This document shows, one piece after another, positions 30,891-44,123 of a stretch of DNA of 64,000 nt. Both the position numbers and the translations under genes were made by a program. The stretch's first letter is position 1, and each line of letters starts with the position of its first letter. The notes under the pieces were generated by a model. The model was not told the origin of the DNA and ran no database searches. It saw only the letters and a program-made list of their open reading frames with translations. Origin of the DNA: Candidatus Poseidoniaceae archaeon (GTDB lineage Archaea > Thermoplasmatota > Poseidoniia > Poseidoniales > Poseidoniaceae); NCBI GenBank assembly GCA_965662895.1, contig CBFIJH010000002.1, positions 128,001-192,000 on the forward strand. Reading direction: 5' to 3'.

Positions 30891-33272
30891 ATGGTGTCCG
30901 ATGAAGAGCAACCCTCTCCATCAGAACTGGCTTCTTTGGTGAACGATATTCTCGAGCCACCAAGCCCAGCAGAATCCAAGGAGAAATTCAAACCCAAGGG
31001 CATGTTTTTGGGCGAGCGAAGAGACTCTGGAACGCCAATCGATATTCCTCCACAGGTCCTTGCACGCCATGCAGCAATGTTGGGCTCAACAGGTTCGGGA
31101 AAAACTGTTATGGCAAAGGCGTTGATTGAAGAAGCAGCCCTTGCGGGAATTCCCGCATTGATCATCGACCCCCAAGGTGATCTCGCACGACTTGCCCTTG
31201 GAATCGATGAAACCGAACTGCTTGAAAAGAACGGGGACATCGACCGGAAGCGAAACTTGCTTGAAAATTCTGAGGTCCGAATTTGGACTCCCCTTCGGAG
31301 CAAAGGCCTCCCCTTGTGCATTGATCCATTTCGAGCTCCACCAGCAGATCTAGACCCAGAAGAAGCAATTACTGCATGGGATATGGTTGCAGCAGGATTC
31401 ACAAGTTTGGCTGGTTACGATGTTGAAAAAGCGCAAGGCAAGGTTGTGAAACCTTTCCTTTACGAAATTCTCGTTGAAGGTACACGATGCGGCCTCGACG
31501 TTGGTGATTTTCAATCACTTGCCCGAGTCGTTCGTGAGCCACATCAAGAATTTACACGATACCTCTATCCACATTGTTTCGTTGAGGACGATGAAGGCGA
31601 GAAGCTAGACGCTCCGACATGGGACGAGGTCATGTTTGAACATCGCCTCACAAATTTTGAAGAACGGTTGCCGAAAACCACGCGCAACGACTTGGCACGC
31701 CGTCTTGCAGCATTTTCGAGCGGCGTCAACCAACTTTTGTTTTCAAACGGTGTACCCATTGACATCGATTCGTTTGTTGAGCCCGCCATTCCTGGGAAAA
31801 CGCCTCTCAATATTGTTTATTTGAATACCATACAGGATGAAGCACAAAAGCAATATTTTGTTCAAGAGCTTTCTCGAGAATTGTACGATTGGATGTTGAC
31901 ACAACAACCAGCAGAAGGGGAACTCAAACTCCTGTTCTTTATGGATGAAGTCGCACCATACCTCCCCCCACATCCACGAAATCCTCCGGCAAAAGATCTG
32001 ATCAAATTGATATTCAAACAAGCTAGAAAATATGGTGTTGCTTGTGTTTTAGCGACACAGAACGTTTCGGATGTTGATTACAAGATTCTTGCTCAGGCGA
32101 ATACGACCTTCATCGGGCGGTTTACACAGCCGCAAGACGTTGAGAAGGTTCGCCATCTACTCAAAGAAAGCGGGGGCGATCAGGATTTGGTTGCACAACT
32201 TCCAACGCTTGGACCGGGCCAATTCCAAATGGTCGCCCCAGATGTCGACCCTGCACCGGTTCCAATTCAATGCAGATGGCTGTATACTGATCACGGCGCA
32301 CCACTCAATGAAGATCAGGTTGAGGAGGTTATATCTCCGGAAATTCGGGCTTGGGCCAAGTCTCGTTCTGCCGGAAGGAAGGGTAGAGGGACGGGCGCTG
32401 CACATGCAGCAAGCCGGGGCTCGAATTGGTCAAATGGAAGCGATGAAGAAGATTCTGAAAGCATTGTTGAAACAGCGCGAATCCAAGCGATTGGAGGCAT
32501 GACGGCAGCAAGTCGCGGTATCGTTGACGAGTCTGGATTCGAGGTCCGATTGATGGGAGGTCTCTCCGTTCTCAAGGATGGACGTGACCCACTCTACACA
32601 ATGCAAGCCGCGGTAAATGGCGTGTCCGTTATCGCTCTAGGATGGGCGTTTGTTGCACTCCTCGAGGCATGGAGAATCGGCGATATTGGTTGGTTTGGGC
32701 TTGCCTCAAGTGGAATCATCACACTAACCGTTGGCCTGTTTATTTCACTCGAGTTAATCCTGTCACACGATTTGGTTCTTCTTCGGAAACTAGCGAAATT
32801 TGCTCGTTTCTTCCAACTCTTCCTCGTTGCCTGGATTTGGATTCTTTTCACATGGTCAACGTGGGGGTCGCTTGATTTGATGGGGCTCGATCCTTTGTTG
32901 GAGGTTGTTGTGGTTTGGGTGACAATTTTTACCGGCATTGACATCATCAATCGGTTCCAACTTGGAAAGATACGTTGGAATGGAGGCAGTGCGCTCGACA
33001 AGGTGGTTGGATTAACTGCAATACTAACGGATTCACAGATGTCAGAGATGCGCGCCAATTCAACACAAATTTTGGGTGTGTTTCGCTGGGTTCTTCACGG
33101 TTTGACCGTTGTGTGGCTTACCATTCTCATCACCTTTGCAACACCGTTTGAGGACGCACCGAATTGGCTTGAAGAGATGACCAACATGCATCTCTGGCTT
33201 GCATCGCTTTACGCATTAATCTTCTTTAGTGAAGGTTGGTTACGCATCCGGAAACGATATGTGGAGCAATAA
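30891..33272 (+). CDS. HerA/FtsK-like (DUF87) ATPase with C-terminal multi-TM domain
   Basis: RHAAMLGSTGSGKT, IIDPQGD, FFMDEV, QARKYGV...ATQ; about 6 TM helices at the C-terminus; start 30831 or 30891. Confidence 0.85.
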   Translation: MVSDEEQPSPSELASLVNDILEPPSPAESKEKFKPKGMFLGERRDSGTPIDIPPQVLARHAAMLGSTGSGKTVMAKALIEEAALAGIPALIIDPQGDLARLALGIDETELLEKNGDIDRKRNLLENSEVRIWTPLRSKGLPLCIDPFRAPPADLDPEEAITAWDMVAAGFTSLAGYDVEKAQGKVVKPFLYEILVEGTRCGLDVGDFQSLARVVREPHQEFTRYLYPHCFVEDDEGEKLDAPTWDEVMFEHRLTNFEERLPKTTRNDLARRLAAFSSGVNQLLFSNGVPIDIDSFVEPAIPGKTPLNIVYLNTIQDEAQKQYFVQELSRELYDWMLTQQPAEGELKLLFFMDEVAPYLPPHPRNPPAKDLIKLIFKQARKYGVACVLATQNVSDVDYKILAQANTTFIGRFTQPQDVEKVRHLLKESGGDQDLVAQLPTLGPGQFQMVAPDVDPAPVPIQCRWLYTDHGAPLNEDQVEEVISPEIRAWAKSRSAGRKGRGTGAAHAASRGSNWSNGSDEEDSESIVETARIQAIGGMTAASRGIVDESGFEVRLMGGLSVLKDGRDPLYTMQAAVNGVSVIALGWAFVALLEAWRIGDIGWFGLASSGIITLTVGLFISLELILSHDLVLLRKLAKFARFFQLFLVAWIWILFTWSTWGSLDLMGLDPLLEVVVVWVTIFTGIDIINRFQLGKIRWNGGSALDKVVGLTAILTDSQMSEMRANSTQILGVFRWVLHGLTVVWLTILITFATPFEDAPNWLEEMTNMHLWLASLYALIFFSEGWLRIRKRYVEQ

Positions 33273-33289
33273 CCTTCTTTCAAACCACT

Positions 33290-34633
33290 TTACAGCAGAA
33301 TATTGACCATTGCTCCTAGATAGTAGGCAAAACAGAAGATTGTAAAATAAGAAACAACCAGTATTGTTGAATCGTTGCATTTTTGCGGTGCAGAGAAATC
33401 GTTGTCTTTGTTCTTGAGAAGTATGACAGCCCAATAAATCCAGAACGCCCACATCACAGAAGCAAACGTCAATTGGATTGCACCTATTGTATTGAACACT
33501 GAATTTTTCCTCCACATTCTGTGAATGAGAATAAGGAAGAAACTGAGGCCACTTAAGCCAATGAGTCGTTTTGGATAAGGCAACGCCCAGGGAATGAGCA
33601 GTGAGAAAATCATGAGATGGTATCCATAGTGAATCTTTGAGTAAAAGATGAAGATCCATAATATGCAGAGCGTAAATGCAGGAAGAATTTCAATTTTCTT
33701 CATCAATGCAGCACCCCATGTCAGCACAATCATTGAGACAAAAAGAATGTGAAGATATGTGCTTGGAATGTAAACCACGTACTCGCCCAAAAATCGCCAA
33801 AACGACATACCTCGTTGATCAATGTCCGACACAGTTTCAGACAACTGAGCTCCGGATGCAGGTTGTTGACCGGTCAAGTAAAAATTGAGGAATTGGAGGA
33901 ATTCTTCGGTAGCATACATCAAAAACGGTAAGGTAACAACGATGCCGATTCCTAATCCCATGGTTGTGGCAAGAAATCGCTTTTTCCAAGTTTTTGGGCC
34001 TATAGCTGCAAGCGGAGCACAGAGAGCTGGAAACAATTTTGTCATTGCACCAAATCCGAACACAGCAGATGCTTTGTACCAACTTTTTCGAATCATGAAG
34101 AGAAATGCAAGGAGAAGAAAGTTGACAATAATTGCATCATCTTGCATCATCATGATGGATGTATAATGAGAAAATGGTGAAGCGATGTAAAAAATCGATC
34201 CTGCTAAAGCATATTGTTTCTCGAAAAAGGAATTTAGAATATGGTACAAAATCACTGAAGACGAGAAAATAAACACGGCAAACCACATTGTCCAGATAAG
34301 CGCGGTATTCCCAAGTAAAACTGCAGGCACGAACAAATAATTGATCAATGGAGGCGACAGAGTGACGTGTTCCGTATCACTGTAGAGCATTTCTCCGTCA
34401 AGAATCGTTTCTGCACGATCTCTGAAAATGTCCAAATCTTTGTGTTCAAATCGGCCATCATCATCATTAATTTCGTATCCAATAAGCATTGGAGCAGCCA
34501 TGACGAACGTCAAGAAAAACAACAACACGTAGATTCTTTTCGTCGAAAAGGTTTCCATCTTTTTGAACAATAAAATGAATTTATTGTTAAGCGAGTGGAC
34601 CGAATCACGAACCTTTCCGGATGAATTTGACAT
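33290..34633 (-). CDS. GT-C fold polytopic glycosyltransferase (GT87-like)
   Basis: About 11 TM helices; DL.IF, PPL..YLF, Q.DD, TKLFP. Confidence 0.7.
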   Translation of the reverse strand: MSNSSGKVRDSVHSLNNKFILLFKKMETFSTKRIYVLLFFLTFVMAAPMLIGYEINDDDGRFEHKDLDIFRDRAETILDGEMLYSDTEHVTLSPPLINYLFVPAVLLGNTALIWTMWFAVFIFSSSVILYHILNSFFEKQYALAGSIFYIASPFSHYTSIMMMQDDAIIVNFLLLAFLFMIRKSWYKASAVFGFGAMTKLFPALCAPLAAIGPKTWKKRFLATTMGLGIGIVVTLPFLMYATEEFLQFLNFYLTGQQPASGAQLSETVSDIDQRGMSFWRFLGEYVVYIPSTYLHILFVSMIVLTWGAALMKKIEILPAFTLCILWIFIFYSKIHYGYHLMIFSLLIPWALPYPKRLIGLSGLSFFLILIHRMWRKNSVFNTIGAIQLTFASVMWAFWIYWAVILLKNKDNDFSAPQKCNDSTILVVSYFTIFCFAYYLGAMVNILL

Positions 34634-34721
34634 GCTGCTTACTCAAATTGCGTCGTTGAAATGCGACATATATATGTTCGGGAATGAATATCTATTTTAC
34701 CACCACCACGCAGGGTTGCAC

Positions 34722-35657
34722 ATGAGTACCGAGGCGTTGGAACTCTCAATCATCGTTCCAGTTCTTGATGAGGAGGAGAATTTGATTCCACTCGTTGAAG
34801 AAATTAAATCAACATTGGAAAACACTGCCTATGAGATCATATTCATCGACGACGGTTCGTCTGACAATTCGCTTGAGGTCATGATGGGCTTGAAGGAATC
34901 AGAGGGAAATGTCCGGGTCATCAAACACCGTCGAAATTTCGGTAAAGCGGTCGCCTTGAAAACTGGGTTTGCAGCAGCGAGCGGAAAGATTTCCATTACA
35001 ATGGACGGAGATTTGCAAGACAATCCAGCGGAAATTCCTCGGTTCATCGAGGAAATTGAGAACGGCAATGACATCGTTTGTGGTTGGAGGGCGAAACGGC
35101 GTGATAATATCCTCAAACGTTGGCCATCAAAACTCTACAATCGTCTTGTACGTATGATGTGCGGAATCAAGATTCATGATATGAATTGCGGATTCAAGGC
35201 TTACGACACCGACTTGGCAAAATCACTCAATTTGTATGGTGATATGCATCGCTATACCCCTGTTCTTGGGAAAATGAACGGTGCAACGATTACTGAAATT
35301 GCCATCAACCACCGACCTCGCTTACATGGAAAATCAAAATATGGAACAAAGCGACTTGCTCGTGGCTTCTTTGATTTGATTACAATATCGTTCCTCATGG
35401 CGTTTCTTGAGCGACCGATGCACTTGTTTGGGAAGGTAGGAGGATTTCTATCAACAGTGGGACTTGCAGTCTGCAGTTACCTTGTTGTCATCAAGTATGC
35501 CTACGATGAGGGGATTGGCGATCGACCATTGCTCTCGCTCGGGGTTTTACTAATTATCATCGGCGTCCAATTTTTCCTTCTCGGTTTGTTGGGTGAGACA
35601 ATCACCTATCGGGCGAGTGAGAACAACACAAACACATCATCGAGCAAGGAGCTTTAA
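34722..35657 (+). CDS. GT2 polyprenol-phosphate glycosyltransferase (DPM/ArnC/GtrB-like)
   Basis: SIIVPVLDEEEN, IDDGSSD, NFGKA.A, MDGDLQD.P, D.NCGFKAY, two C-terminal TM helices. Confidence 0.92.
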   Translation: MSTEALELSIIVPVLDEEENLIPLVEEIKSTLENTAYEIIFIDDGSSDNSLEVMMGLKESEGNVRVIKHRRNFGKAVALKTGFAAASGKISITMDGDLQDNPAEIPRFIEEIENGNDIVCGWRAKRRDNILKRWPSKLYNRLVRMMCGIKIHDMNCGFKAYDTDLAKSLNLYGDMHRYTPVLGKMNGATITEIAINHRPRLHGKSKYGTKRLARGFFDLITISFLMAFLERPMHLFGKVGGFLSTVGLAVCSYLVVIKYAYDEGIGDRPLLSLGVLLIIIGVQFFLLGLLGETITYRASENNTNTSSSKEL

Positions 35658-36590
35658 TCACTCTTCTTCCAGTTCTTCTGGCGACATCATTGTCAAGCCA
35701 AGAACAAAGACAATGATTTCGACAAGGACGTTTAACGTTCTTGAAAGGACCGCAACAATACCTGCAATCCCTCCGCTCAAAAACAGTGACAAGTTGAACG
35801 TGAAAACGCCTTCTCGAGCCCCGAGACCTGCAGGTAAGAAGAACGCAAAAAAACCAACCAACCAAGCGATCGAGAAAGATCCAATGAGTAACGTAAGAGA
35901 AGCATCCACACCAAGCCCCAAGAGAATGAATTGATGTGCAAGTCCCCACAGAACCCAAGAAACGATCATGAGGAAAAGGGCGATACTGTAGTACTTTCTT
36001 GTCATCGACGTATCATGATTCCATTCGCCTCTTCCCAGAATAGAAAACGGTTTCCGGACGATTGCCTGCGTAAACTTTGGACTCATTATTGGTAAGAGAC
36101 TTGCAAGGCCAACGCAGACCAGAATCCACTTTGTTGATGTTGGAATTCCTTCCAAATGGAGCAAGAAAAGTCCTGCAATCACTGCGGATGATACACTGAT
36201 AATCAATTCCCAAACGAAGGATTCGAGTACGACTTTGCTTCCATATCTTCGAGCAACGTAGGCTCTCCCTGCAATGAGACTTATTTTTCCAGGAACATAT
36301 TTTGCAACGTTTGTTGTCCACCAAATACCAAAACAGAGTCGGTATGGGACGTCTGCTCCACTTCCCAACATCAAAAATTTCCAAACAATTGGGCTCAGAA
36401 TCAATACGCCAAAAATGCAAACAATCGACATAAAGATGATCGGTTTTGCATCAAAGAGCGTGTCAAGTATGTTGATGTTGCTCGATTCAATCTGTTGATG
36501 AATGAACCAAAATGAAAGTATGACAATCAAAACAGTTAGTATTCTCCCAAGCAATTGGGCGGAAGAAGTTGATGCAGTGTCACTTTTCAT
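35658..36590 (-). CDS. lysylphosphatidylglycerol-synthase-TM / flippase-like membrane protein
   Basis: KYVPGK and PAGLGAREG motifs; about 8 TM helices. Confidence 0.82.
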   Translation of the reverse strand: MKSDTASTSSAQLLGRILTVLIVILSFWFIHQQIESSNINILDTLFDAKPIIFMSIVCIFGVLILSPIVWKFLMLGSGADVPYRLCFGIWWTTNVAKYVPGKISLIAGRAYVARRYGSKVVLESFVWELIISVSSAVIAGLFLLHLEGIPTSTKWILVCVGLASLLPIMSPKFTQAIVRKPFSILGRGEWNHDTSMTRKYYSIALFLMIVSWVLWGLAHQFILLGLGVDASLTLLIGSFSIAWLVGFFAFFLPAGLGAREGVFTFNLSLFLSGGIAGIVAVLSRTLNVLVEIIVFVLGLTMMSPEELEEE

Positions 36591-37804
36591 TCAACCACAC
36601 CATACCATTGCTTCATCGTATTCGACAACGATTCATCGGTGTATTTCTGATCGATTTCTGTACGAGCATTATGCACCAATTCGTCGCGATATTCAGAATT
36701 CTCAAGAATCCTGACCATTGCATTTTGCAAAGCATTGACGTCGTTTTCAGGAACGATGAGTCCGGTCTTCTCATGAATGATCGTCTCCGCAATTCCTCCA
36801 CAATCCGTTCCAATAACAGGGATGCCTGCAATCATTGCCTCGAGAACAACAAGTCCGAGCCCTTCTTTCTCACCAAGTGCAGTCGTCTTTGAAGGCAATA
36901 CGAACAATTCAGCCTGATTGTAAAACTCTTTGAGTTCGCCTCGAGGCTTCGAGCCGTGAAATTCGATACGATGATCAATTCCATTTTTCTGCGACAAGGC
37001 TGTCAATCGTTGACGTTCAGGACCGTCGCCAACAATGTCGAGTTTCCATTCTTTGAATTCATCATGTTGCAACAATTTGCTAAAGGCATTGATGAGGACA
37101 TCGACCCCCTTGACCTCCATTAATCGGCCAACAAAGAGGATGCGCTTTGTTTCTTTAGGCGTCGTGAGAGGTTCTTGGCGAAAATCCTCAAGCCCGAAGA
37201 CCATAGGCAATACGAGCCCTTTTCCACGAGATTGTCCATAGTGATTGGTGACGATTTCCTGCAGTGCTTCGGAGACAAAGTGAAGTTTTTTGGCAGAATG
37301 AATCGATTTCTGAGCGAGCCGTTTTGCAATTTTCATTTTATTGATAAGAAAAACATCTGTTCCATGCATTGATATCCATAGATTCGATTGATTCACCATT
37401 GCCTTCTTTGTGATGTAAGCGCCAGGAATCAACCAGTGTGCATGAACAATGGTTGGTTTCAGTTCTTTGATGAGTTTCCTCGTCGCCTTTCTCCACTTTC
37501 GAAGAAAGGAATAAAACAAGAACGCCTTGAATATTGAACGCTTCACCTGTTTATGCATATCGCCCTGGTAGGCGAGCGTTTGTTTGTGTTCTCGTGCATA
37601 TCGGAACCGCCGAATTTCGATGCCATCGATCGTTTCAGTTAACGGTAGGCCGGGGGCGTGTGGGCAATGGACGACAACACGTGCAAAGCCGGAACAAACC
37701 TTCGCCAATTCATGCATAAATGGCGCAACATGGTCGTCTTTGTATCGTGGATAAACGTGGGTGTTGAAGAGGATGATTGGCTCTGACTCCATCGTATCAT
37801 CCAT
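36587..37804 (-). CDS. GT4 family glycosyltransferase
   Basis: HAHW..P, FVGRL..VKG, EGLGLVVLEAM..G.PVI. Confidence 0.92.
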   Translation of the reverse strand: MDDTMESEPIILFNTHVYPRYKDDHVAPFMHELAKVCSGFARVVVHCPHAPGLPLTETIDGIEIRRFRYAREHKQTLAYQGDMHKQVKRSIFKAFLFYSFLRKWRKATRKLIKELKPTIVHAHWLIPGAYITKKAMVNQSNLWISMHGTDVFLINKMKIAKRLAQKSIHSAKKLHFVSEALQEIVTNHYGQSRGKGLVLPMVFGLEDFRQEPLTTPKETKRILFVGRLMEVKGVDVLINAFSKLLQHDEFKEWKLDIVGDGPERQRLTALSQKNGIDHRIEFHGSKPRGELKEFYNQAELFVLPSKTTALGEKEGLGLVVLEAMIAGIPVIGTDCGGIAETIIHEKTGLIVPENDVNALQNAMVRILENSEYRDELVHNARTEIDQKYTDESLSNTMKQWYGVVE

Positions 37805-37928
37805 ACGCTTGCCTTTTGTTCATCACTTATTATTGATGTCCAATTCTATGTCTCGTTCAGATGGTGTTCAGACTTCGCCAAGCGTTTTCAAGATATATGC
37901 TGATAACCAACAACCTTCACCTTGAGAC

Positions 37929-38600
37929 ATGGTGGACGACGAATTCATACCACTTGATTGGACGGAGGTCTCAGAAGATGAGATGAACGACCGGTCTGAG
38001 GCGTTGTTGAATGGAATGAGAAAGCGACGCACGACTCGACATTTCTCAAACCGGAAGGTATCAAAACAGTTGATTGAGAGAGCCATTCTGTGTGGAGGAA
38101 CTGCTCCAAGCGGAGCTCATCTCCAGCCATGGACATTCGTAGCAATCTCGCAACAAGAATTGAAGCAAAAAATTCGGGAAGCGGCTGAGGCTGAGGAACG
38201 AAAAACCTACCAAGATCGCATGCCTGACGCTTGGAGAGAAGTGCTTCAACCTCTTGGAACAGATGCTGTCAAAGAGCATCTCACAGAGGCACCATGGGTT
38301 GTCGTTCTTTTCCGTCAATCGAAACGCCTTCGACCAAACGGAGAATGGGGTCCAACCTACTACAGCAATGAAAGCTGCGGGATTGCAGCGGGAATGTTCA
38401 TTTACGCAATTCACAACATGGGTTTGGTAACGTTAACGCACACACCATCACCAATGGGATTCCTAAGAGAAATCCTCAACCGGCCAGACCATGAACATGC
38501 CATGCTCGTTTTGCCTGTAGGATACCCAGCAGAAGATGCAAAAGTACCAAATTTACAACGAAAGACACTAAATGACATTGCCGTATTCTTTGAAGAATGA
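37929..38600 (+). CDS. nitroreductase family, iodotyrosine-deiodinase-like
   Basis: RRTTRHFS, GTAPSGAH.QPWTFV, EAEE...Y..RM...W...L..LGT...K..L..AP, LTHTP. Confidence 0.85.
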   Translation: MVDDEFIPLDWTEVSEDEMNDRSEALLNGMRKRRTTRHFSNRKVSKQLIERAILCGGTAPSGAHLQPWTFVAISQQELKQKIREAAEAEERKTYQDRMPDAWREVLQPLGTDAVKEHLTEAPWVVVLFRQSKRLRPNGEWGPTYYSNESCGIAAGMFIYAIHNMGLVTLTHTPSPMGFLREILNRPDHEHAMLVLPVGYPAEDAKVPNLQRKTLNDIAVFFEE

Positions 38601-39394: not shown

Positions 39395-39481
39395 TGGTGC
39401 AGAGGGCAGGATTCGAACCTGCGAACCGTTACGGACTGGGACCTCATCCCAGCGCCTTTGACCAAGCTGGGCGACCCCTGC
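39395..39481 (-). tRNA. tRNA-Leu(GAG), CCA encoded
   Basis: GCAGGGG/CTCTGC-ACCA acceptor, anticodon arm CTGGG-ATGAGGT-CCCAG, long variable arm, GGTTCGAATCC T-arm. Confidence 0.95.
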
Positions 39482-39564
39482 AGCAATCACAACTGCCACA
39501 CTCGCGTATATCAAAACCACGACGCGTTCAAATGACGAGAATTGCGATGTCGGTAATCAATAGG

Positions 39565-39597
39565 TCTCAATAGAACATAGGACTTTCCGAAGTATCT
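39565..39597 (+). promoter_or_regulatory. shared upstream motif, copy 1 (TCTCAATAGA-N10-TTCCGAAGTATCT)
   Basis: 20 of 23 non-spacer positions identical to copy 2 at 43138-43170(-), same 10-nt spacer. Confidence 0.6.
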
Positions 39598-39640
39598 GGC
39601 TATGTATCTTGAATGTCTGAGACAGCACGAGAGGCTATTT

Positions 39641-40489
39641 ATGGAAGCAAACGAGCATTACCGTACAATGTTCCTCTCCGATTGGCATCTTGGCATGAAG
39701 GGCATCAAGTCGGCTGAACTTCTTGCATTCTTAGAAACTCATGACGCTGAGACGATTTATCTGATTGGGGATATCGTCGATCAATGGGTTCTCGGCAGAA
39801 AGTGGTCATGGAATTCGGACTGCGACAATATCCTGCGCAACCTCTTGGAGAAAGCAGAGCGTGGAACAAAAATCATCTACATACCCGGGAACCACGATGA
39901 TGGGTTTAGGGCTTGGGCGAATACCTCCGTCAATGGAATAAGAATCCAAAAAGACGCAGTTCATACAACAGCGGATGGCCGCAAGCTCTGGATTCTGCAT
40001 GGTGATGAATTCGATTTGTTCATGAGACATAGTAGATTTTTGGCAAATCTTGGCCATTCCATTGTTCAGTTGCTCATGAAACTGAACCGTCCCGTGACTT
40101 GGTTCCGAAAGAGAGTAGGGCTGAAACCTTGGTCACTTGCAACAATGGCAAGACGGGCTTTTCAAGGAAGCAGTAAGACCTACCGTAGATTCTCAACAGC
40201 GGTTACAGAAGAAGCGATGAAACTCGGTTACGATGGTGTTGTTTGTGGTCACATCCACAAGGCAGAATTCAAATTGATCAATGGAATTGAGTACTGGAAC
40301 GATGGTGATTGGGTCGATTCATGTACAGCAACCGTTGAGGCAATGGATGGAACGATGCAAATTGTCCATTATCAGCCGGCATCTGAGACCATCAAGGCAT
40401 TGTGTGAGCGTGCTTCAATCCGAGACTCAGAGATAACAAACAAACCCATTCTCCATCTTCCTGAGATTCTGGAACAGGTGGCTTCATGA
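39641..40489 (+). CDS. PlcP/LpxH2-like metallophosphoesterase (putative phospholipase C)
   Basis: YRT.FLSDWHLG, YLIGDIVD.W, YIPGNHD, H.TADG...W..HGD.FD, VCGHIH, N.GDWVDSCTA.VE. Confidence 0.85.
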   Translation: MEANEHYRTMFLSDWHLGMKGIKSAELLAFLETHDAETIYLIGDIVDQWVLGRKWSWNSDCDNILRNLLEKAERGTKIIYIPGNHDDGFRAWANTSVNGIRIQKDAVHTTADGRKLWILHGDEFDLFMRHSRFLANLGHSIVQLLMKLNRPVTWFRKRVGLKPWSLATMARRAFQGSSKTYRRFSTAVTEEAMKLGYDGVVCGHIHKAEFKLINGIEYWNDGDWVDSCTATVEAMDGTMQIVHYQPASETIKALCERASIRDSEITNKPILHLPEILEQVAS

Positions 40490-41625
40490 AAATCGCCTAT
40501 GCACTTGCTGGAGAGGGACGAGGTCACGCAGTCAGAGCCATATCGCTTGCAAAAGGTCTCATAGAGCGCGGCCATGAAATTGATTTCTTTACCTGTGGTG
40601 ATGCCCTCGAATTACTTCGGGAAACGTTTGGTGCCAACGCGGTTCATGATCTCGAAACACCGAGATTTGTTATCGTTAGAAATCGAGTATCAATCTTGCG
40701 GACAGGAATTGCCTCAATTCGTTTCTTTGGCAAACAAGGTCGCAGAAAAAGAAAGTTTTCAAAGACATTACGCTCGATGAACATCGAAGCAGTTATTTCC
40801 GATTTTGAGCCAACGTTTCCAAGGGTCGCTCGTCGACTCAAACTTCCTTTGATTTCATTTAACTCTCAACGATTTGCCTTGGATGCAAAATTGGATGAAG
40901 TGCTGACATTTCGGCAACGGATGAAACTCTTTCCGATCAAAACCTTATGCTGGTTTTTTGCCCCAAAGCCACAACTTAGTTTGGTTTCAAAAGGGTTTAA
41001 CCTGAAACCGAACAAGCCAACTGCACATATACTCGGTCCAATGTTGCGGCCAGAATTTTTCCCAGGGGCATGGAGGCCAACAGGCACACATGCGATTGCC
41101 TATCTTCGAACAAGTGTGCTCCAACACCTCCCAGCTATTGCTGCGCATGCTCAATCGCATGGCCTGTCTCTCAAATTGTACGGACATTACCCTGAAAATG
41201 TTCCTGACAACGTCGAGATCCGACCTATATCGAACGACGGGTTCATTGAGGATCTTCTGACTGCAGACTGGATGATTCAAACCGCGGGTACACAACTCCT
41301 TGGAGAGGCCGGAACAATCTCTATCCCATCGATCTGTATCCCCGAACCGGGACAAGTTGAGCAGGAAATCAATGGGATTCTCGCAGAAAAAACGTTGCCT
41401 AATGTGAAGGTTCTGCGTCCAAAGTCAACATCGATTCAGGAGATTGATGCAATGCTTGAGACATGCCGCAAAGCATCGACGACTTCAAACATCGAAAACG
41501 GAAAAAAACAGGCCGTTGCAATTGTTGATGAATTTTTAAACGGTTTAGAACGAGAGACAACCTTGTCTGAACCAAAGCAAGACCTTGATCTCCAGTTAAC
41601 AAATGAACAACCTTCCTCAAATTGA
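40486..41625 (+). CDS. GT-B glycosyltransferase (MJ1255/VC2487-like)
   Basis: MKIAY...GEGRGHAVRA, VISDFEP, GP.LR, P.PGQ.EQ.IN; ATGA-coupled to the phosphoesterase. Confidence 0.85.
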   Translation: MKIAYALAGEGRGHAVRAISLAKGLIERGHEIDFFTCGDALELLRETFGANAVHDLETPRFVIVRNRVSILRTGIASIRFFGKQGRRKRKFSKTLRSMNIEAVISDFEPTFPRVARRLKLPLISFNSQRFALDAKLDEVLTFRQRMKLFPIKTLCWFFAPKPQLSLVSKGFNLKPNKPTAHILGPMLRPEFFPGAWRPTGTHAIAYLRTSVLQHLPAIAAHAQSHGLSLKLYGHYPENVPDNVEIRPISNDGFIEDLLTADWMIQTAGTQLLGEAGTISIPSICIPEPGQVEQEINGILAEKTLPNVKVLRPKSTSIQEIDAMLETCRKASTTSNIENGKKQAVAIVDEFLNGLERETTLSEPKQDLDLQLTNEQPSSN

Positions 41626-41687
41626 TGAGGTTTAATCATTCAACGAGATTCTGTCAATTGTTTGCCTATTGGTTCCAGGCGTCGAAA

Positions 41688-42359
41688 TTAATCGCGAATG
41701 GTTTGGAGCATATCCGAAACGTATGGTTTGACACTGGCCCATACCTCGCTGTGGACCTCGCCGACCGAACCTCGAGTGTGAACTACGGGGTACCCCTCAA
41801 GTTCTGCTCTTTTCTCGAAGGCCTTTCTGAGGAGCTTCTGATACGCCAAAAATGAGTGAGTGATGGAGGGAGACAATCCCATGTCAGCCCCAGCTTCGTA
41901 ATGGTTGAGTTTTGTCAGCGATTCGTTGTACATCATACGGTTGAGCAGGCGGCGTCCGCCCGCAAGAAGTGTCACGGTCACATCCGCCTCTGGCATGTCT
42001 CGGTACAATCCCTGAATCCATTCCGCATCGCCGCCTCGGACGGTCTCCCGAATCAACGGCGTTGTGGTGTAACGATCGGCGATGACAACAAAACCGGCCT
42101 CCATGAGCGGCTGGACCTCGTGAATGTACTGGTCGTGCAAATCGGTCGCATAGAGAAGGGCACGAGTTCGCCAGTTCAATTGATGAAGATCTGAATGTGA
42201 ACGCTTGATGAGGTCTCCGAGAAGTTCCGAACGGGCAAGCCCAACAACCACCACGGCGACGCCGTGGGCTTGTAGCCGTTCACTCAGTAACCGCACGTGC
42301 ATTGAACGGCCAACATTATCCGGCCCTTCGATGACAATGAGTTTCCCTCCTGTCGTCAT
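41688..42359 (-). CDS. thymidylate-kinase-like protein with degenerate P-loop
   Basis: GKLIVIEGPDNVGRS (Walker A Lys replaced by Arg), ADRY, YEAG.DMG. Confidence 0.82.
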   Translation of the reverse strand: MTTGGKLIVIEGPDNVGRSMHVRLLSERLQAHGVAVVVVGLARSELLGDLIKRSHSDLHQLNWRTRALLYATDLHDQYIHEVQPLMEAGFVVIADRYTTTPLIRETVRGGDAEWIQGLYRDMPEADVTVTLLAGGRRLLNRMMYNESLTKLNHYEAGADMGLSPSITHSFLAYQKLLRKAFEKRAELEGYPVVHTRGSVGEVHSEVWASVKPYVSDMLQTIRD

Positions 42360-43111
42360 GCGTCATCCTCCAGAGCACTCCAGTCAAACGATGATGTGCG
42401 AATCATCTCGGCTACCCGGTCGTTTTCGTCAATGGGTTGAATGTTGTCGAGATCCACGTGCTCTGAAATCATTGCACGCACGCGAGATTGGACCTCTGCA
42501 ACGGTCCCCAAGGCGTCTACTCGGACAATACGACCATCTCGAACCAGAGCGTCGTAGATTTCCTTGATTTTACCCTGAAGTATCTTGTAGGATTCAAACG
42601 GGTCGAATGTCCATCCCATGTCCAGGCCAGCTTCGTAATACTTCAGTGTCGGCCGGCCTTTGATAATCCGGTCGTATCCAATTTCAGGAGGGATATCAAA
42701 GTACAGGGTTATGTCTGGTTCTCTAGCAAACGAATAGTTCGATTCGATGGTATCTCGTTTGACACCTCGGGCACCATCTCTCGCCATTGCCGTGAATTTG
42801 TATCGGTCGCAGATTACGATGCCACCAACCTCCAGCATCGGCTCAATTTGCTTGCTCCAGCGGTCTGCAAAGTCTGCAGCATGGATGAGGTGGAAGGTTT
42901 GTGGCTTGAGTCGTTTTGTGTTCTTGCCGGCCTTCGTGGCTTCTGCAACAACCGGACTTGAGTTCCATTCAGTGTGGTGTACCGGCAGTCCCAGTGCACG
43001 AATCCAGTTGAACAAAAGCATAGCCTGAGTTGATTTACCGCTTCCATCCATGCCTTCGACAGCAATCAATAGACCCCGTTCAAGTGGTAATTTTTCACGT
43101 ACTTCGGACAA
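42356..43111 (-). CDS. thymidylate-kinase-like protein
   Basis: GLLIAVEGMDGSGKSTQ, TEWNSS, HAADFADR, CDRY, YYEAGLDMG; probable TTG start at 43111 (ORF open to 43183). Confidence 0.85.
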   Translation of the reverse strand: MSEVREKLPLERGLLIAVEGMDGSGKSTQAMLLFNWIRALGLPVHHTEWNSSPVVAEATKAGKNTKRLKPQTFHLIHAADFADRWSKQIEPMLEVGGIVICDRYKFTAMARDGARGVKRDTIESNYSFAREPDITLYFDIPPEIGYDRIIKGRPTLKYYEAGLDMGWTFDPFESYKILQGKIKEIYDALVRDGRIVRVDALGTVAEVQSRVRAMISEHVDLDNIQPIDENDRVAEMIRTSSFDWSALEDDA

Positions 43112-43137
43112 TGCATCACACCCGTTCGATTGTTTGT

Positions 43138-43170
43138 AGAACCTTCCGAATTTATTACCATCTATTGAGA
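43138..43170 (-). promoter_or_regulatory. shared upstream motif, copy 2 (TCTCAATAGA-N10-TTCGGAAGGTTCT)
   Basis: Matches 39565-39597; ends 26 nt before the inferred TTG start. Confidence 0.6.
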
Positions 43171-43213
43171 TATTATAATCCAAGTTTTTTTGTAATCTCA
43201 GTGTATGAATTCT

Positions 43214-44026
43214 TCAATAAAAGATGGAACAACAGGTGATTGAGCCATCAGCTTCTCGAATCTGATCCATCTTGAGAACAATCGGTTCCAAACCTTTCTG
43301 CTTGAGTGCCTTTAGAACCGTTGGATAGCCTTCTGCAACGAGGACTTTCCCGTTTTCAAAACCAATCGTGTTGCACCCGTAGACTTCTTCTTCAGGCATC
43401 AGCAGGACTTCGCAACCTTCTGGGAGTTCACCGAAATCCTCCGCAGTAAGGTAACCCTCTGCGGTGAGAATAATGTTGTCGGTTGGTGTTGAGGAAATGG
43501 AGGTGAGATGGAGGGCTTTCTCTATTGGAATGTCGACAATACGCAACTCATGACCAAGGTGTGTCAGAAGGTTGCGTAGTGTTTCAATTCCTGCTTCATT
43601 TGTTCGCTCTGAGCGACCAACGAAGAAGATGTCACCGAGTCGTAGAATGTCGCCACCATCCATTCGAGCATCGCCAAACATACCACAGACTTGGAACCCG
43701 TTGAGTTGTCGTGAAAGGAAATCTGCGATTGGCGGTTGTTCTCCAACACGTGACGGGTGGCCAGGTACTGGTAGGAGCACGTGACCGTCGATAACGATGG
43801 CTTGATCTTCAACAAAAATACAGTCAGGGTGGTTGTTGTCTGCAGGAAGGATGGTCACCTCAAGGCCGATGTCCAAAAGCGCTTGGACATAGGCTGCATG
43901 TTGTGTTTTTGCCAATGCAATATCGGTTGGTCCAGAACCGAAATAGTTGGCTATTGCATCGGAGAAAGAGCGAGGAACGGCCCTCATGAGGACACGTTGC
44001 TTCTGGTCCGTGCGGACAGTAGCCAT
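43214..44026 (-). CDS. dimethylarginine dimethylaminohydrolase / amidinotransferase
   Basis: QH..Y...L, PDCIFVED, SR.GE, DGGD, RTN..G, LHL, DGSITCCS. Confidence 0.9.
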   Translation of the reverse strand: MATVRTDQKQRVLMRAVPRSFSDAIANYFGSGPTDIALAKTQHAAYVQALLDIGLEVTILPADNNHPDCIFVEDQAIVIDGHVLLPVPGHPSRVGEQPPIADFLSRQLNGFQVCGMFGDARMDGGDILRLGDIFFVGRSERTNEAGIETLRNLLTHLGHELRIVDIPIEKALHLTSISSTPTDNIILTAEGYLTAEDFGELPEGCEVLLMPEEEVYGCNTIGFENGKVLVAEGYPTVLKALKQKGLEPIVLKMDQIREADGSITCCSIFY

Positions 44027-44123
44027 GATTGACCGGCCAATCATCGTCATTTAATCCTTGGTGAGTGATTGAAACGTGCCAAAGACCATTGAATTGAAAC
44101 ATAAGTTGCGAGTGGGGTTTAGT

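Follow-up and report, generated by a model that had tools for sequence, protein, structure and literature searches.

The closest described systems to the locus reported here are a bacterial lipid-remodelling operon and an archaeal polyphosphate kinase. The plcP-agt operon, published in PMC4796936 (the part of the article available to us) and known from Phaeobacter MED193, SAR11 HTCC7211, S. meliloti and P. aeruginosa (PA3219-PA3218), joins the gene of a PlcP phospholipase C to that of the GT4 glycosyltransferase Agt. The polyphosphate kinase PPK3 of S. acidocaldarius (SaPPK3; Hofmann et al., J Biol Chem 2026, PMC12995831) is a heteromer of a catalytic subunit (cPPK3, Saci_2019) and a regulatory subunit (rPPK3, Saci_2020). 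According to the accessible portion of that report, on which all our statements about PPK3 draw, the enzyme prefers polyphosphate (polyP) + ADP to ATP and is without dTMP kinase activity, PPK3 operons always carry both subunits, rPPK3s have the arginine of the DRX motif replaced, and PPK3 holders have a canonical Tmk elsewhere and are mostly without PPK1 and PPK2. In a stretch of 64,000 nucleotides from a Candidatus Poseidoniaceae archaeon (GenBank assembly GCA_965662895.1, contig CBFIJH010000002.1, positions 128,001 to 192,000; hereafter the window), we found four genes, A to D, that appear to combine a pair of each kind. Our favoured reading, which we hold to be moderately probable, is that positions 39515-43212 of the window are an accessory phosphorus-economy cassette of two independent convergent operons, A-B for lipid remodelling and D-C for a polyphosphate kinase of the PPK3 type. 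Its parts are as follows.

39515..43212, no strand: presence/absence cassette of 3.7 kb, exactly A, B, C and D, delimited by blastn against the syntenic loci of G112, G124, G072 and G018
39641..40489, + strand: A, PlcP-family metallophosphoesterase and predicted phospholipase C (homology and alignment; reading frame open from 39602)
40486..41625, + strand: B, GT-B glycosyltransferase of the PF13528 / TIGR00661 (MJ1255/VC2487) family (PF13528, 141 bits)
41688..42359, - strand: C, rPPK3-like partner subunit with a TMK fold (PDB sequence match 2plr/5h70 and orthologue alignment)
42356..43111, - strand: D, cPPK3-like catalytic subunit (PDB sequence match 2plr/5h70; reading frame open to TTG 43183)

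Open reading frame (ORF) calling on the window placed all four genes where the preliminary description had them, with family matches to the metallophosphoesterases (LpxH-like) for A, to the PF13528 glycosyltransferases for B and to PF02223 for both C and D. The stop codon of A overlaps the start codon of B (ATGA), D and C overlap in the same way, and the two pairs are convergent, with 62 nt between their stop codons. The ORF positions, the overlaps and an ARAGORN prediction thus confirm the earlier picture of two ATGA-coupled pairs facing each other beside a tRNA-Leu gene. The host genome assembly measures 1.86 Mb and is 92% complete, and because DNA contigs of three other studies span A-B-C-D, the gene order is not an assembly artefact. 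Empty sites were found by blastn in four genomes of the same genus (G112, G124, G072 and G018), where the flanks left of 39514 and right of 43213 join within 13-33 nt, so that 39515-43212 is missing as one block that starts 33 nt from the tRNA-Leu gene. Flanking direct repeats of the att type were not found at the cassette ends, nor was an integrase found within the block.

Gene A is, as judged from its sequence, a member of the bacterial PlcP phospholipase C family, with a predicted activity of that kind. It matches PF00149 with 44 bits, and the residues invariant in its alignment (D14, H16, G43-D44, G83-N84-H85-D86, H120 and G203-H204-x-H206) are those of the metallophosphoesterase motifs; we take them to be the metal and catalytic residues named DxH, GD, GNHD/E, H and GHxH. 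Relatives of A outside Poseidoniales are thousands of proteobacterial proteins, mostly auto-named LpxH. Gene A belongs to the same metallophosphoesterase superfamily as this UDP-2,3-diacylglucosamine diphosphatase, but it falls far below the LpxH equivalog cut-offs (NF003743, 43.2 bits against 134; TIGR01854, 35.6 bits against 190.35), reaches no more than 22 bits with the solved structures of LpxH, and stands in a host in which a lipid A pathway is not expected, since lipid A is not known from archaea. It is 43-48% identical (E ~1e-70) to homologues of Rhizobium, Burkholderia, Sphingomonadales and Erythrobacter, close kin of the characterised PlcPs that were compared in their place; the characterised PlcPs share 46-47% identity with each other (PMC8528852, in its accessible part). 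Published comparisons with characterised PlcPs apply a BLASTP threshold of E<1e-40. The bacterial loci of A relatives, a set that includes Burkholderia and Rhizobium, contain an Agt-like GT4 gene in 67 of 79 cases, and in 64 of those 67 it begins no more than 300 nt downstream, in the same orientation. As in the plcP-agt operon, A is translationally coupled to a downstream glycosyltransferase, which, together with its kinship to plcP-agt homologues, bears out the earlier proposal of a PlcP-type phosphoesterase paired with a glycosyltransferase. A quick maximum-likelihood tree, from which two rows with stop codons were left out, placed 15 Poseidoniales sequences on one side of a branch with SH-aLRT 99 and 77 bacterial rows on the other, with several of the Poseidoniales branches long. 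A-like genes (E≤1e-20) were present in 10 of 301 sampled Thermoplasmatota genomes, and all 10 were Poseidoniales.

The second member of this pair, B, adjoins A in 14 of the 14 genomes that have A, so that A stands with a glycosyltransferase in each of them. Unlike the plcP-agt operon, the host is an archaeon without a PhoB or Pho box system, and B belongs to PF13528/TIGR00661 instead of GT4. Poseidoniales contribute nearly all homologues of B; next come 'MurG-like' proteins from Planctomycetes and Sumerlaeia, with ~30-34% identity. The predicted model of B (pLDDT 89.4) has as Foldseek neighbours the GT1 UDP-glycosyltransferases OleD and YojK, plant UGTs and the sterol glucosyltransferase UGT51, and also MurG, with TM-scores of 0.55-0.67 and identities of 12-17%. 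The modelled fold fits a lipid acceptor, and we predict from sequence that B is a GT1/GT28-like enzyme that would glycosylate the lipid left by A. A B-like glycosyltransferase gene (44% identity) also lies immediately upstream of D-C, on the same strand, in another genome (locus L032, G104:C16), and PlcP was not found in that genome.

The membrane lipids of Marine Group II (MGII), to which the host belongs, are described as an open question in the accessible part of PMC6962369, where MGII genomes show the lipid gene set that we found in the host and a bacterial-like or chimeric glycerol-3-phosphate (G3P) membrane is considered possible. In the host genome we found GGGP synthase, a glycerol-3-phosphate dehydrogenase of the GpsA type and three matches to PlsC-type acyltransferases. 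The glycerol-1-phosphate (G1P) dehydrogenase family Fe-ADH_2 had no match there but did match in each of the four archaeal control genomes. Because GpsA and PlsC-type genes are present and the G1P dehydrogenase was not found, it is plausible that a G3P-based lipid would be a stereochemically suitable substrate for a PlcP of the bacterial family.

Genes D and C are predicted to form a PPK3-type two-subunit polyphosphate kinase, with D as the catalytic subunit and C as its partner. Against all PDB sequences, D matched best the entries 2plr/5h70 (S. tokodaii STK_15430, a cPPK3 homologue according to the accessible part of PMC12995831) with 181 bits and an E value of 3e-52, compared with 54.6 bits for the best true dTMP kinase in PDB, and C had the same best match with 84.9 bits, followed by a match of 24 bits. 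The assignment of D and C to the PPK3 branch was made from these proxy scores together with a separate Tmk, the canonical enzyme being encoded elsewhere in the genome (C11:57180-57683, 109 bits on PF02223). PPK1, PPK2 and Ppx-GppA were not found in the 92%-complete host genome. A C-like gene adjoins D in 29 of the 29 genomes with D, which is the adjacent-paralogue arrangement of PPK3. In these respects, and in having one subunit with a degenerate catalytic motif and phosphate-gene neighbourhoods in relatives, the pair resembles SaPPK3 as presented in that part of the report. The 181-bit match to a cPPK3 homologue upholds, as a PPK3-type pair, the tie of the TMK-like genes to phosphate or polyphosphate that the preliminary description had proposed, and the link of tandem TMK-like pairs to ppx, CHAD and phoU genes, which it also put forward, turned out to be published (PMC12995831, accessible part). 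Prediction of the D+C complex gave a score of 0.59, compared with 0.02 for the best of three controls, which is a weak pass, scores up to 0.60 counting as weak; at least 95% of contacts were shared between the runs, and the pLDDT of the partner was 83 or more. The mark used admits 58 of 80 solved complexes and 2 of 110 mismatched pairs; the modelled complex may have passed it through its likeness to solved TMK dimers.

The two subunits appear to differ in their catalytic motifs. In the orthologue alignment, D retains the GKST and DRY motifs, and C has a Walker A motif with lysine changed to arginine, which reads G-R-S in C itself and G-R-[ST] in 26 of 26 orthologues, while keeping D95-R96 of DRY in all 18 orthologues aligned. 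By these alignments C is degenerate at Walker A instead of at DRX, unlike rPPK3 as presented in the accessible part of the SaPPK3 report. Among the best 150 of 2,055 representatives of C relatives, the Walker-A residue was arginine in 77, lysine in 47, cysteine in 3 and serine in 1, no Walker-A motif was found in 18, and 4 were fused two-domain proteins with lysine first and then arginine, valine or threonine. The arginine in 77 of these 150 points to the Arg-type partner as a large, conserved class. In six single proteins of 450-700 aa (P0338, P0343, P0346, P0351, P0358 and P0372), a TMK-fold domain of the Lys-type precedes a second one of the Arg/Val/Thr-type; such two-domain proteins are apparently fused cPPK3-rPPK3 forms.

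In relatives, phosphate genes recur in the neighbourhoods of both pairs. We compared 35 loci by simple ORF calling and clustering, with representatives scanned against Pfam and NCBIfam; A and D copies missed by the ORF calling were recovered by tblastn or from genome-search coordinates. PstA lies within ~6 kb in 9 of the 35 loci, usually with PstB, and of these 9 loci, 7 hold D-C and 6 hold A-B; the representatives score 205 bits against a cut-off of 193 for PstA and 388 against 343 for PstB. One blastp cluster that had been considered as a PstB marker was partly rejected, since its short members were PotA/PhnT-like or LivG/F-like and only the long members pass the PstB cut-off; PstA was used as the marker instead. 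As with the plcP-agt operon, pst genes thus stand beside A in relatives. A gene for a PhoU-domain protein is present in 10 of the 35 loci, mostly just upstream of D, and Pfam matches identify a PHO4 (Pit)-PhoU_div fusion transporter in 9 and a PAP2 phosphatase-family protein in 7. Compared with the accessible description of SaPPK3, D-C in Poseidoniales therefore has PhoU, Pit, pst and PlcP as neighbours, and no PPX, CHAD, SixA or PstC/S gene lies beside the pair in the host genome. A fixed array around the PPK3-like pair recurs in L035, L036, L038, L040-L045 and L048, all from one family of the order; it consists of the PHO4(Pit)-PhoU_div fusion, a 345-aa PhoU-domain protein, a PAP2-family protein and an AhpC/TSA-like protein of 480-530 aa, and the genomes with this array also have PPK2. 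A small ParB_N/SerK-like protein was found by Pfam and NCBIfam in 9 of the 35 loci (L017-L021, L023, L025, L037 and L046; e.g. L019:4891-5343, - strand), always convergent on C, with or without the PlcP-glycosyltransferase pair. It has 130-160 aa and resembles the N-terminal part of SerK, the ADP-dependent serine kinase of archaea, although its 62 bits fall well short of the cut-off; a homologue is encoded in the host genome at C11:49784-50194.

A parallel linkage was seen in bacteria. In 10 of the 79 bacterial loci, ppk1 lies 227-1302 nt downstream of plcP or plcP-agt in the same orientation, and all ten (L057, L058, L063, L080, L089, L093, L095, L100, L101 and L110) belong to Burkholderiales, including Comamonadaceae, or to unclassified Betaproteobacteria. 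We did not meet this plcP-ppk1 linkage in the accessible parts of the PlcP literature consulted. Like the cassette, these plcP-agt-ppk1 arrays physically link lipid-renovation genes to a polyphosphate kinase; unlike them, the cassette has PPK3 rather than PPK1, is convergent rather than co-directional, and stands in an archaeal rather than a bacterial host.

The distribution of the genes was surveyed in 151 genomes of the order Poseidoniales. A occurs in 14, B orthologues (E≤1e-70) in 16 and D orthologues (E<1e-90) in 29 of them, and A and D occur together in 10. In 8 of these 10 (G000, G020, G062, G006, G014, G066, G148 and G129), one contig carries A-B and C-D side by side in convergent orientation, and these eight cases span two families and different surroundings. 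PPK2 is present in 26 of the 151 genomes and PPK1 in 1; the 13 D-C genomes without PPK2 include every genome that has both pairs.

Each pair is preceded by a copy of the same 10-nt box.

39565..39574, + strand: TCTCAATAGA box before A, ~67 nt upstream of the ATG of A
43161..43170, - strand: TCTCAATAGA box, second copy, before D, ~50 nt upstream of the likely D start

Both copies are exact, which agrees with the shared upstream motif noted in the preliminary description, and both are conserved: the box before A is kept at the orthologous place in G020, G014, G148/L050 and G129, the box before D in G020, G074 and G062, and orthologous loci of other genera have related boxes, YCTC[A/T]ATAG, in the same relative places. 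The motif is, on the other hand, not above chance in the window, where 3 matches with at most one mismatch compare with 4.4 expected, and its second copy falls inside the longest ORF of D. Most gene models of D orthologues are 234-254 aa long and begin 5-12 residues ahead of GILIAVEG, so the real start of D is more likely the in-frame TTG at 43111, which has GGGTG just upstream and is conserved in the same-genus genome G020, than TTG 43183; a start at 43111 would leave the box ~50 nt upstream of D. For A, the conserved start is ATG 39641, although the ORF is open from 39602. A looser form of the motif occurs in 22 of the genome's 608 upstream regions, in most cases 17-45 nt from the ATG, and TCTCAATAGA is therefore probably a TATA-like promoter element. 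This speaks for a separate promoter before each pair and gives no sign of a shared regulator. A sigma-70 promoter scan, irrelevant for archaea, gave fewer sites than shuffled sequences.

Two further features flank the cassette.

39395..39481, - strand: tRNA-Leu(GAG), left neighbour of the cassette (ARAGORN)
43214..44050, - strand: DDAH/amidinotransferase-like gene, right flank (family match; kept at empty sites)

Synteny of filled and empty sites shows the tRNA-Leu(GAG) in cassette-bearing and cassette-free genomes alike. The DDAH-like gene was considered as a member of the D-C operon and ruled out, since it is present at the empty sites. Within it, a 58-nt contig at 43985-44042 matches with 0 differences at depths of 230 and 106 in two independent DNA runs, in which the contigs over the cassette and the DDAH-like gene reach a depth of only ~8-11; this suggests a stretch common to many co-occurring strains with differing flanks. 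A second presence/absence block lies at window positions 33270-38004, 1.5 kb left of the cassette, and encodes a membrane glycosyltransferase resembling PMT_2, a GT2 enzyme, a protein of the LPG_synthase_TM family and a GT4 enzyme. G112, G124, G072 and G018 lack this block, G062 has it, and in G020 a choice-of-anchor-I gene occupies its place.

On our favoured reading, A would cut the phospho-headgroup off glycerophospholipids, and B would put a sugar on the remaining diradylglycerol to give a phosphorus-free glycolipid, by which membrane phosphorus would be saved. D and C would, as a PPK3, interconvert polyP + ADP and ATP, with polyP as a buffer of phosphorus and energy: phosphate would go into polyP while ATP is plentiful and come back as ATP at times of energy or phosphorus shortage. 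The cassette, with two promoters and two translationally coupled pairs, would be an accessory trait of some MGII populations; it may be induced by phosphate stress, and a coupling between the two operons is conceivable. The simplest reading is that both operons serve phosphorus economy in parallel and that neither feeds the other; we prefer it to the channelling of lipid phosphate into the kinase step, which the preliminary description had proposed, because the product of PlcP would be a phospho-headgroup, which is not a PPK3 substrate. A more far-reaching version, which we regard as tentative and rather doubtful, would make the locus a self-contained, horizontally exchangeable MGII cassette. 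In this version, PlcP would act on bacterial-type phospholipids (G3P, ester or mixed), and these lineages would have no polyphosphate kinase other than PPK3. The two operons would be selected and induced jointly, which would bring headgroup phosphate and polyP under common management, and Comamonadaceae would have arrived at the same linkage anew, with PPK1.

Several observations speak against the favoured reading, and most of them bear on whether the two pairs belong together. D-C occurs without A in 19 of the 29 D genomes and A-B without D-C in 4 of the 14 A genomes (G028, in which the contig with A-B is only 4.9 kb, G004, G015 and G141), and in G032 and G052 the two pairs are on different contigs. 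The four genes are accordingly one 3.7-kb block in this genus and separable pairs across the order, so that the proposal of a single four-gene unit holds only in part, as does the synteny expected from it across Poseidoniales. In the host genome, pst and a PhoU-like gene lie ~118 kb from the cassette on the same contig, and PPK2 accompanies D-C in 16 of 29 genomes. The shared box lacks specificity: the whole genome holds 4 exact copies of TCTCAATAGA where 4.1 are expected, and among the 608 upstream regions its looser form was not found at pst or phoU, so that a specific regulator site was rejected on the chance-level count and the 22 genes with the looser form, and the co-regulation proposed earlier finds no support in the motif. 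Transcripts add little. Only one RNA run contained any matching words (6%), and it gave one 212-nt contig inside A, a weak hint of its expression, one contig in the DDAH-like gene, and nothing for B, C and D; it shows neither transcription nor its absence. These distributions and the non-specific box, together with convergent transcription from separate promoters and another unrelated variable block 1.5 kb away, would be expected if two unrelated accessory operons shared a variable insertion spot beside tRNA-Leu, without common regulation or function. We consider that somewhat unlikely, although it deserves serious attention: A-D is gained or lost as one clean block, the pairs are adjacent in most genomes with both and in different surroundings of two families, both stand by pst genes in relatives, and plcP-agt and ppk1 have become linked independently in Burkholderiales.

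Other points concern what the single genes do. D scores 90.9 on the dTMP kinase equivalog TIGR00041 and so passes its cut-off of 83.25, which C fails with 59.9; C and D both match PF02223, and public records name D orthologues 'dTMP kinase'. C, moreover, does not show the loss of the DRX arginine expected for rPPK3. The family scores and names would suit a role of C and D in nucleotide salvage, as kinases of dTMP or another nucleotide monophosphate instead of a polyphosphate kinase, and we consider this very unlikely in view of the better-scoring canonical Tmk elsewhere in the genome, the more than threefold gap in bits between the cPPK3 homologue and true dTMP kinases as matches of D, the PhoU, Pit and pst neighbours of the pair, and the homologous Sulfolobus pair, which had polyphosphate kinase and no dTMP kinase activity (PMC12995831, accessible part). 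Because D passes the dTMP kinase cut-off and its orthologues carry that name, PPK3 catalytic subunits are likely to be systematically mis-annotated as dTMP kinase. As for the other pair, a B-like gene is present in 0 of the 79 bacterial plcP loci, B is not an Agt of GT4, and the solved enzymes closest to it in fold have macrolides, sterols, terpenoids and lipid I as substrates, which does not name the acceptor of B. Together with the weak LpxH matches of A, the glycosyltransferase-rich variable blocks nearby and the open state of MGII lipids, this would suit an action of A and B on a substrate other than bulk phospholipid, for example as an LpxH-like pyrophosphatase and a GT1-like transferase on a lipid-linked or small hydrophobic glycoconjugate (a surface glycan, or a carotenoid or quinone glycoside). 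Such a role seems to us unlikely, since the closest relatives of A are PlcPs in plcP-agt operons, A scores far below the LpxH cut-offs, archaea are not known to have lipid A, and A-B stands by pst genes in 6 loci.

The phospholipid-to-glycolipid swap and polyphosphate handling are each known, and they have not been described together or in MGII archaea. The statement that no such unit had been described before therefore holds for the four-gene cassette in the literature searched, while each half is of a known kind. In that literature, we found no work with both PlcP and Marine Group II, no apparent work on an archaeal PlcP and, in the parts of the sources accessible to us, no link of Poseidoniales to polyphosphate. 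The Ocean Gene Atlas case study of PlcP names only Proteobacteria and Bacteroidetes, and the main text of PMC12995831, as far as accessible, is without Poseidoniales, Thermoplasmatota or Euryarchaeota, although its supplements may list Poseidoniales. The novelty lies in a host that is an archaeon, a glycosyltransferase other than Agt, a partner subunit of the Arg-type in which DRX is retained, and the block of four genes.

Marine Group II is among the most abundant planktonic archaea and is uncultured. If our favoured reading is correct, some MGII populations would hold glycerophospholipids that a bacterial-type phospholipase C can cleave and that are replaced by glycolipids, and D-C would bring PPK3, a family known since 2026 from Crenarchaeota, into a major lineage of the ocean. 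The cycling of polyP by marine archaea would at present be invisible in annotations, as the pair is labelled dTMP kinase, and the clean presence/absence block offers a marker that can be mapped against phosphate in ocean metagenomes. Should the more far-reaching version of an exchangeable cassette also be true, the locus would be direct genomic evidence for bacterial-type membranes in MGII, which would be replaced by glycolipids when phosphate is scarce.

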